NCBI GenBank assembly: GCA_041690135.1
Contig: JAWLHY010000005.1
Coordinates: forward strand, 307,261 to 371,260
DNA length: 64,000 nt
DNA from: Armatimonadota bacterium
GTDB lineage: Bacteria; Armatimonadota; SYMT01
Direction of reading: 5' to 3'
The notes beneath the pieces are model-generated. The model was not told the origin of the DNA. It ran no database searches and worked only from the letters and a program-made list of their open reading frames with translations. Positions 53,804 to 57,876 of the stretch are shown in pieces. The first letter of the stretch is position 1. Every line of letters starts with the position of its first letter. Position numbers and translations under genes: made by a program.

Positions 53804-54493
53804 ATGGCGAGAAGACGCCGAAATCGCAGTGAGAACCCGCCACCGGTGGAACTCTCCGAGAGCAGGGACAGGGTGGTGATCGAACCCGCGGAAGCCGGTG
53901 AGCCCACCGAGGCCGGTCGGAAAGGCGGCGCAGTGATTGCGACCCATCCAGCGGCCGGCATCCACATCGCTCGCGCCGAGAGAGAACGCGTGGGCGAGCG
54001 TACGGGTCTGGTCAACTGGGGCGCCGCGCTGCTGGCGGGGCTGGCGGCTGGGATCCTGCTGTTGCTTCTGGAAGTGCTCCTCGTTCCGATTGCGTTCCGG
54101 GAGAGCCCCTGGGCGCCGATCCGGATGATGGCGTCCGTGATCTTTGGAGAGTCGCTGATCACCTCCGCAGCGCCGCTCGGCCTGGGAGCCATTGTGGTGG
54201 GCCTGCTGGTCCACTTCGCGGTCTCCCTCTTGTTTGCGGTGGTGCTGGGCATGCTGGTTCGCTGGTTCGACTGGGGCCCCGCGGCGCTCTTCGGCGCGGG
54301 CTTCGGACTGGTGATGTACATGATCCTGTTCCACGCGACCTGGACCTGGCTCGGCTGGTTCGCGGCGGGGAGAACAGCGGTTAACATCCTGCTCCATGTG
54401 CTCTTCGGCATCACCGCGGCCCTGGTCTACCGCGCCGTGGCGGGCCCTCCGGAACCCGTGGCGGACTACGCCCAGCCGGATCTGGGTAACTAA
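53804..54493 (+). CDS. 4-TM membrane protein with His in two helices
   Basis: RBS AAGGAGG; SPWAPIRMMAS; GLLVHF; LLHVLFG. Confidence 0.8.
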   Translation: MARRRRNRSENPPPVELSESRDRVVIEPAEAGEPTEAGRKGGAVIATHPAAGIHIARAERERVGERTGLVNWGAALLAGLAAGILLLLLEVLLVPIAFRESPWAPIRMMASVIFGESLITSAAPLGLGAIVVGLLVHFAVSLLFAVVLGMLVRWFDWGPAALFGAGFGLVMYMILFHATWTWLGWFAAGRTAVNILLHVLFGITAALVYRAVAGPPEPVADYAQPDLGN

Positions 54494-54538
54494 GGCCTGC
54501 CGGGGCGCCGGAGACTCGCGCCCGGCAGGAGGTAAGAA

Positions 54539-54790
54539 ATGCCGAGACAGGTGAGCGTCTTTACGCAGCCCGGGTGACCCCCGTGCAGCCAGGTGAAGGA
54601 GTTTCTTTCACGCAATAACGTACCGTTCGCGGAACGGGACGTCCGCACGGATCCACAAGCCATCGACGAACTGCGCCGGTTGGGCGCCATGATGACGCCG
54701 GTCACCGTGATCGACGGTCAGCAGGTGCTCGGTTTCGATGAGCCGCAGTTGCGCAATCTGCTGGGGCTGAACCAGCAAAAAGCCGCCTGA
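54539..54790 (+). CDS. Glutaredoxin/NrdH-like selenoprotein (UPPC; TGA at 54575-54577 read as Sec)
   Basis: AGGAGG at 54527-54532; ATG 54539; MPRQVSVFTQPG-TGA-PPCSQVKEFLSRNNVPF..TPVTVIDGQQVLGFD; 83 aa. Confidence 0.85.
54593..54611 (+). promoter_or_regulatory. Putative bacterial SECIS hairpin
   Basis: gtgaagga-gtt-tctttcac; 8 bp with one G-U; loop G about 24 nt after the UGA. Confidence 0.6.
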
Positions 54791-54816
54791 GAAGCCAGAT
54801 CCGCTGGAGCTTGGAG

Positions 54817-54851
54817 GGAGAGGTGTGGGAGCGAGCCTCGCACACCTCTCC
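54817..54851 (+). terminator. Hairpin after the glutaredoxin gene
   Basis: ggagaggtgtg / cacacctctcc; no clear U-tract. Confidence 0.45.
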
Positions 54852-54867
54852 TACTCGTTCCGGGTAA

Positions 54868-57876
<3,009 letters not shown>

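Follow-up and report, generated by a model that had tools for sequence, protein, structure and literature searches.

The closest solved relative of the protein described here is cGrx1 of Clostridium (Alkaliphilus) oremlandii OhILAs (PDB 7c10, 7c12, 7c13). Excerpts of PMC7642778 identify the 7c10 entry as this organism's dithiol Grx1 and state that the protein is natively a selenoprotein, its motif being U(or C)PXC, and that Cys took the place of selenocysteine (Sec) for the structure; they describe it as reduced by glutathione and as acting in turn as the reductant of MsrA. The available portion of a 2026 review has a table that lists Grx (PF00462, UxxC), with Kim et al. 2011 as its reference, just before the subheading 'Predicted with high confidence', at a place where the families are cited to experimental papers; the same portion speaks of Sec-Grx in a limited number of species, and the accessible part of a Sargasso Sea study reports ten UxxC glutaredoxin selenoprotein sequences. 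Thus, given the characterised cGrx1 together with the review and the Sargasso Sea report, the UxxC selenoprotein glutaredoxin is a known and experimentally grounded kind of protein. A second relevant system is BC3987 from Bacillus cereus (PDB 3zij, 3zit), a C-P-P-C thioredoxin of 8.7 kDa whose homologues have been described only from the B. cereus group; excerpts of PMC3720550 give its motif as T-x3-C-P-P-C, the Thr being tied to catalytic efficiency. Small thioredoxin folds of about 75-85 amino acids are also found in the YruB/Cp9 (TIGR02196) and NrdH (TIGR02194) families. The UXX-star families (NF041212, NF041211, NF041114, NF047338), whose name we take to mean U-x-x-stop, are likewise glutaredoxin-like selenoproteins. 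For one of them, NF041114, the review table, as far as available, lists a UxxT motif and two Sec residues.

Within a 64,000-nucleotide stretch of DNA from an Armatimonadota bacterium (the window), positions 54539-54790 of the plus strand very probably encode, judging from the sequence, an 83-residue selenoprotein of the glutaredoxin/small-thioredoxin (YruB, NrdH, BC3987-like) type in which UGA is read as Sec. A Shine-Dalgarno-like AGGAGG (54527-54532), read directly from the sequence, is followed after a 6-nt spacer by ATG (54539-54541), and the frame, translated with TGA as U, contains a single internal TGA and stays open until the TGA stop at 54788-54790. By sequence and homologue comparison, the internal TGA (54575-54577) is a Sec codon, codon 13 (U13), i.e., the first residue of a U-P-P-C redox motif: the next codons are CCC CCG TGC, giving T9-Q-P-G-U13-P-P-C16, with the putative resolving Cys16 encoded by TGC at 54584-54586. 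Further along the same strand are T53-P54-V55 (54695-54703), the cis-Pro loop of the thioredoxin fold, which aligns with V-P-V and T-P-T of 7c10 and 3zij, and a G65-F66-D67 motif (54731-54739). All these elements, from the AGGAGG and the TGA at the first Cys of the CxxC motif to the TPV and GFD motifs, a hairpin at 54593-54611 and a short open reading frame starting at 54593, had been pointed out in an earlier note on this DNA, and we find them where it placed them. The mechanical list of open reading frames has the gene only as that last piece, a GTG-start frame of 65 amino acids (54593-54790, plus strand) that lacks strand beta-1 and the active site.

The family assignment runs across the TGA. 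The Pfam Glutaredoxin profile PF00462 covers residues 5-62 with its positions 1-59 (of 60) at 57.4 bits (cut-off 22.9; E 1.7e-15), the U13-P-P-C16 motif lies near the N-terminus with the cis-Pro T-P54-V behind it, and the protein aligns residue by residue with both 7c10 and 3zij. The best PDB match is 7c10_A (residues 1-79, E 2.5e-18, 37/79 identical by hand count), and the likeness to cGrx1 extends to length (84 amino acids there, 83 here), to Sec at the same alignment position and to a resolving Cys three residues later, a U-P-x-C arrangement in the excerpted description; this likeness counts among the support for the selenoprotein reading of the earlier note. The two differ in the motif itself, U-P-H-C in cGrx1 and U-P-P-C here. 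BC3987 is matched over residues 3-77 (E 1.4e-15, 34 identical by hand count) and shares the T-Q-P-x-C-P-P-C context, in which the Thr precedes the first residue of the active site by four positions. The window protein fits the T-x3-C-P-P-C pattern with U replacing the first Cys, whereas the nucleophile of BC3987 itself is Cys and not Sec. None of the curated NCBIfam cut-offs is reached by the window protein: its best match there, YruB/Cp9, scores 71 bits over profile positions 1-73 of 74 but misses the cut-off of 88.55, and NrdH scores 50.8 against 85.75, the NrdH motif C-V-Q-C (from excerpts of PMC3720550) being absent and no nrdHIEF-type genes being among the neighbours. The UXX-star profiles match weakly (51, 39.9, 20.5 and 29.6 bits for NF041212, NF041211, NF041114 and NF047338, against cut-offs of 66, 100, 72 and 97), and the window protein, in contrast to these, has one Sec, within UxxC, and no short U-x-x-stop tail.

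The product would adopt a thioredoxin fold with the active site T-x3-U-P-P-C and would presumably work by dithiol exchange of the usual sort, here with a selenol/thiol pair in which U13 is the nucleophile and C16 resolves. The U13 selenolate would attack a disulfide, or a sulfenic or selenenic acid, of a client protein, C16 would resolve the mixed selenenylsulfide, and the oxidised U-C bridge would be re-reduced afterwards; both the selenium incorporation and the clients of the window protein are what we infer from such comparisons. As to the reductant, the likeness to cGrx1 invites the reading that the selenoprotein is a classical glutathione-dependent glutaredoxin, e.g., one that recycles MsrA. 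Its closest solved relative is described, in the excerpts cited above, as glutathione-reduced and as a reductant of MsrA, and an MsrA gene is present in the genome. However, gshB (TIGR01380), gshA (PF04262) and GCS2 (PF04107) find no match in this 97% complete genome, which argues, if only indirectly, against glutathione dependence; the MsrA found here has no in-frame stop and is of the Cys type, unlike the selenoprotein MsrA of the anaerobic Firmicute that hosts cGrx1 and thus not the selenoprotein partner of the Clostridium pair; and the U-P-P-C site with its T-x3 context is of the BC3987 small-thioredoxin type in a genome that has thioredoxin reductase. We therefore consider the glutathione-dependent reading rather unlikely. 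A tandem selenoprotein pair with MsrA, as in Clostridium, is ruled out by the same MsrA gene. NADPH-thioredoxin reductase is somewhat the likelier reductant than glutathione, given that no glutathione-synthesis gene is matched, that thioredoxin reductase (TrxR, TIGR01292) is found with 396.6 bits at G000:C18:132613-133527 and that the site is of the C-P-P-C type.

Homologues were searched for in 401 genomes of the same phylum (E<=1e-8), and each row with a TGA was read at the level of its locus. The search gave 70 matches in 64 of the 401 genomes, 23 of them with a TGA; a separate look for related loci with the single protein as query gave no relative. In 18 genes from 15 of the 401 genomes, spread over several families of the phylum, the TGA falls on exactly the U13 codon, counts that come from related, non-independent genomes and hence overstate the support; the five TGA rows that remain belong to Cys forms, the TGA coming at the C-terminus or beyond, and 52 of the 70 matches have Cys or no TGA at the U13 codon. 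The alternation of Cys and TGA, for which the earlier note had suggested looking, is thus seen at precisely this codon. Sec-form copies can be multiple, three in one genome and two in another. The former, a 3.7 Mb genome (G007; L024, L037, L040, L041), holds three Sec paralogues (U-F-F-C twice and U-S-P-C once) beside one Cys form (C-E-E-C). Most Sec forms read Q-P-G-U-x-x-C, and two read (L/T)-P-T-U-P-Y-C, beside Cys forms with T-P-T-C-P-Y-C. One Cys form of the latter sort (L026, genome G011) has a frame that carries on through a pair of neighbouring TGA codons and then a third, four codons ahead of a TAA/TAG stop; either the frame may simply stay open after an ordinary stop, or the protein may end in a Sec-containing tail like that of the UXX-star families.

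In an alignment of 15 distinct Sec forms (A2) the columns C/U13, C16, L23, P54 and G65 are invariant and F66 is conserved in at least 90%, and the N-terminal segment Q-V-x-V-Y-T-Q-P-G-U-x-x-C is kept in frame among the relatives. For the tree, rows with an alignment score below 120 and duplicates were dropped and L156-L160 were left out, leaving 35 rows. All 15 Sec rows fall together with four Cys rows in one 19-row group (support 91/66). Four Sec/Cys label changes are needed on this tree, two of them forced by well-supported branches. It follows that swaps between Sec and Cys, whichever way they ran, happened more than once inside one subfamily.

Public databases hold the gene only in its shortened form. 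A word-seeded search of a 5.8-billion-protein collection (E<=1e-10) returned eight proteins: the window's own 65-residue fragment (P0002, identical to the GTG-start frame), five short forms (P0003-P0007, relatives of 63-67 amino acids that start just after the UxxC) and two full-length Cys forms. The expectation of the earlier note that standard gene callers would truncate such a gene is thereby confirmed, for this gene, public only as P0002, and for the five relatives, which are cut likewise. It could be argued that these entries are right, i.e., that the real product is the 65-residue protein from GTG 54593 and that the 12 codons upstream are untranslated or a separate mini-ORF, since this is the form in the collection for P0002 and its five relatives and a GTG start does exist at 54593. 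Such a product, however, would miss strand beta-1 and the whole redox motif, whereas the Pfam hit (residues 5-62) and the PDB alignments (residues 1-79) both extend to either side of the TGA and the N-terminal segment is conserved in frame among relatives; moreover, the AGGAGG precedes ATG 54539 and not the GTG, and the GTG itself sits within the stem of the SECIS element described below. We regard the shorter product as very improbable and keep to the 83-residue selenoprotein.

Downstream of the internal TGA lies a bacterial SECIS hairpin (54593-54611, plus strand), a call that rests on folding, covariation and restriction to Sec forms. Its arms, GUGAAGGA at 54593-54600 and UCUUUCAC at 54604-54611, form 8 bp around the loop GUU (54601-54603), and the distance from the UGA to the loop is 23 nt. 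Excerpts of PMC13188914 (legend of Fig. 2) limit a bSECIS to a loop of 3-9 nt with G among its first two positions, a stem of 4-16 bp, an MFE of -7.5 kcal/mol or lower and a spacing of 16-37 nt, and the window hairpin, with its GUU loop, 8 bp, 23 nt and -8.4 kcal/mol, lies inside all the constraints in that legend. Without its relatives the hairpin exceeds chance only slightly: 27 nt fold locally at -8.4 kcal/mol (z -2.26, matched by six of 200 shuffles), and a 66-nt fold around it has a z of -0.50. Comparison among the homologues lifts it well beyond chance. When an unbroken stem of 6 bp or more, in register, and a loop of 3-5 nt opening with GU (or NGU) were required, 15 of 17 distinct Sec forms qualified and none of 32 distinct Cys forms did; the two Sec-form exceptions have a bulged helix of 5+2 bp (G005) and a helix of 4 bp only (G245).

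Folds were compared for the Sec-form segments of the first 16 loci, which amount to 15 distinct ones because two are identical over 60 nt. All 15 give the hairpin in the same register, and the mean local folding energy is -10.0 kcal/mol for them against -5.6 for 29 Cys forms. In their ungapped alignment (A3) pairing is seen in 88.3% of the cells, with compensatory changes in three of the eight pairs (including AU/CG/UA at columns 20/36 and AU/CG/GC at columns 26/30), G27 and U28 are invariant in the 15 Sec forms, and the covariation score is reached by none of 500 shuffles and is lower in every slid register. The hairpin lies within a conserved coding stretch, V-K-E-F-L-S, and protein constraint thus explains part of its sequence conservation. 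However, Cys forms with nearly the same peptide (V-K-E-Y-L-K, A-K-E-F-L-E) form no helix here, so that the pairing is no by-product of the protein sequence. An Rfam scan of 54400-54900 (4227 families, E<=10) gave no match to a SECIS family; it returned only sub-threshold miRNA and sRNA names, which are owed to a downstream hairpin at 54816-54852.

The genome to which the window belongs (9.1 Mb, 25 contigs, 97% complete) has the machinery for Sec. The earlier note had proposed a search for selA, selB, selC and selD, and all four were found, each over its curated cut-off: selA with 566.6 bits, selB with 383.6 bits (on contig 8, away from the other sel genes), selD with 369.6 bits and tRNA-Sec with 67.2 bits, the last also called by ARAGORN as SeC with anticodon tca. 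selA, selD and tRNA-Sec are clustered at G000:C1:1149453-1152359 (L001, L012, L014), followed closely by a tRNA-Ala. The Rfam model for tRNA-Sec also matches at G000:C2:905114-905197 (47.8 bits against a gathering score of 47), probably a tRNA with a long variable arm. The selD gene itself has one in-frame TGA (G-G-U), and about 28 nt past this UGA comes a hairpin of 7-8 bp with the loop GUG; decoding of UGA as Sec by a GU-loop element of this type is thus something the organism already relies on. In the redoxin mRNA, SelB with Sec-tRNA(Sec) would bind the hairpin at 54593-54611 by its GU-first apical loop and bring Sec to the ribosome, UGA 54575-54577 would be decoded as selenocysteine during translation, and TGA 54788 would terminate, as no such hairpin lies in register with it.

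Across the phylum sample, selA turned up in more than half of the genomes (215 of 401, of which 212 score over the curated cut-off), which makes Sec use itself unsurprising there. It is present in 14 of the 15 genomes that carry a Sec form, the sole carrier in which it was not detected (G219) being 74% complete, a count that we take as consistency and not as a statistical test because the carrier genomes are related. All six other genomes of the window's own family have selA, and in only one of the six (G005) was a Sec redoxin found at E<=1e-8. That the gene is a pseudogene whose former Cys codon became TGA by nonsense mutation, or by an error in sequencing, is hardly credible: the TGA is one base away from TGC or TGT and the hairpin alone is statistically not striking, but the same codon is TGA in 18 genes from 15 genomes that span several families of the phylum, the encoded protein stays conserved in frame before and after it, a covarying hairpin specific to the Sec forms follows it, and the genome has the Sec machinery.

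The neighbourhood of the gene is heterogeneous. A Cys-free membrane protein of 229 amino acids lies upstream, with a GH1-like hydrolase further upstream, and an aconitase lies on the other side; the search for a thioredoxin-reductase or peroxiredoxin gene beside the redoxin in the window found none. The 229-residue product (53804-54493, directly upstream on the same strand) is a predicted membrane protein with an Arg/Glu-rich N-terminus and gave no Pfam match at E<=1e-5. A Pfam scan of 39 flanking ORFs (37 from 13 Sec-form loci and two from the window) gave no gene partner conserved across lineages. In one genus (G109, G199, G136, G078, G163) four of the five Sec-form loci were among those scanned (L046, L047, L049 and L050, the fifth being L052), and in these four the Sec form (T-A-[KR]-G-U-x-A-C) is followed immediately, on its own strand, by a DsbD-like gene (DsbD_N + DsbD_TM); in this genus the Sec form may act as a cytoplasmic electron donor.

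Two strong hairpins flank the gene. The upstream one, at 54496-54529, sits in the gap that separates the preceding gene's stop codon from the ATG (fold of 54490-54545: -27.7 kcal/mol, z -2.22), its 3' arm overlapping the first bases of the AGGAGG. It could end the transcript of that preceding gene or hide the ribosome-binding site. The downstream one (54816-54852, plus strand), 26 nt past the stop codon, has a 12-bp perfect helix with outer pairing at 54798-54868 and no U tract (fold of 54788-54870: -40.7 kcal/mol, z -3.23); it is likely a transcript end, though it does not fit the terminator consensus, a scan of 54300-55000 for promoter and terminator consensus having given no match.

The genome has two genes for heme-copper oxidase subunit I (COX1), which makes aerobic respiration plausible. 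The earlier note had placed Sec use in an aerobic stress context, and of this the use of Sec stands on the machinery, the alternation and the SECIS element, while the stress part does not: the neighbours are silent on stress and are not conserved, and nothing ties the redoxin gene to stress. One may go further and see in the Sec forms a distinct, unannotated Sec subfamily, a TrxR-coupled 'selenoredoxin' that was ancestrally Sec, reverted several times to Cys and feeds electrons to membrane or peroxide-detoxifying thiol systems. The predominance of Q-P-G-U-x-x-C among the Sec forms, their presence in public protein collections as truncated fragments only, the respiratory oxidases, the lack of detectable glutathione synthesis and, in one genus, the DsbD-like gene directly downstream all enter into this picture, but we hold this extended picture to be speculative and, on balance, doubtful.

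By its sequence the gene is a genuine selenoprotein gene, mis-called in public data, and it joins the known UxxC selenoprotein glutaredoxins, to which it adds a U-P-P-C variant. The finding opens no new mechanism, and its main value is one of annotation correction: the public entry is a 65-residue fragment that lacks the active site, and the same truncation affects five relatives or more. Excerpts of a recent review state that selenoproteins are rarely retained by aerobic bacteria. For the organism itself, with its large genome and heme-copper oxidases, the redoxin adds one selenoprotein, besides SelD, to the selenoproteome.
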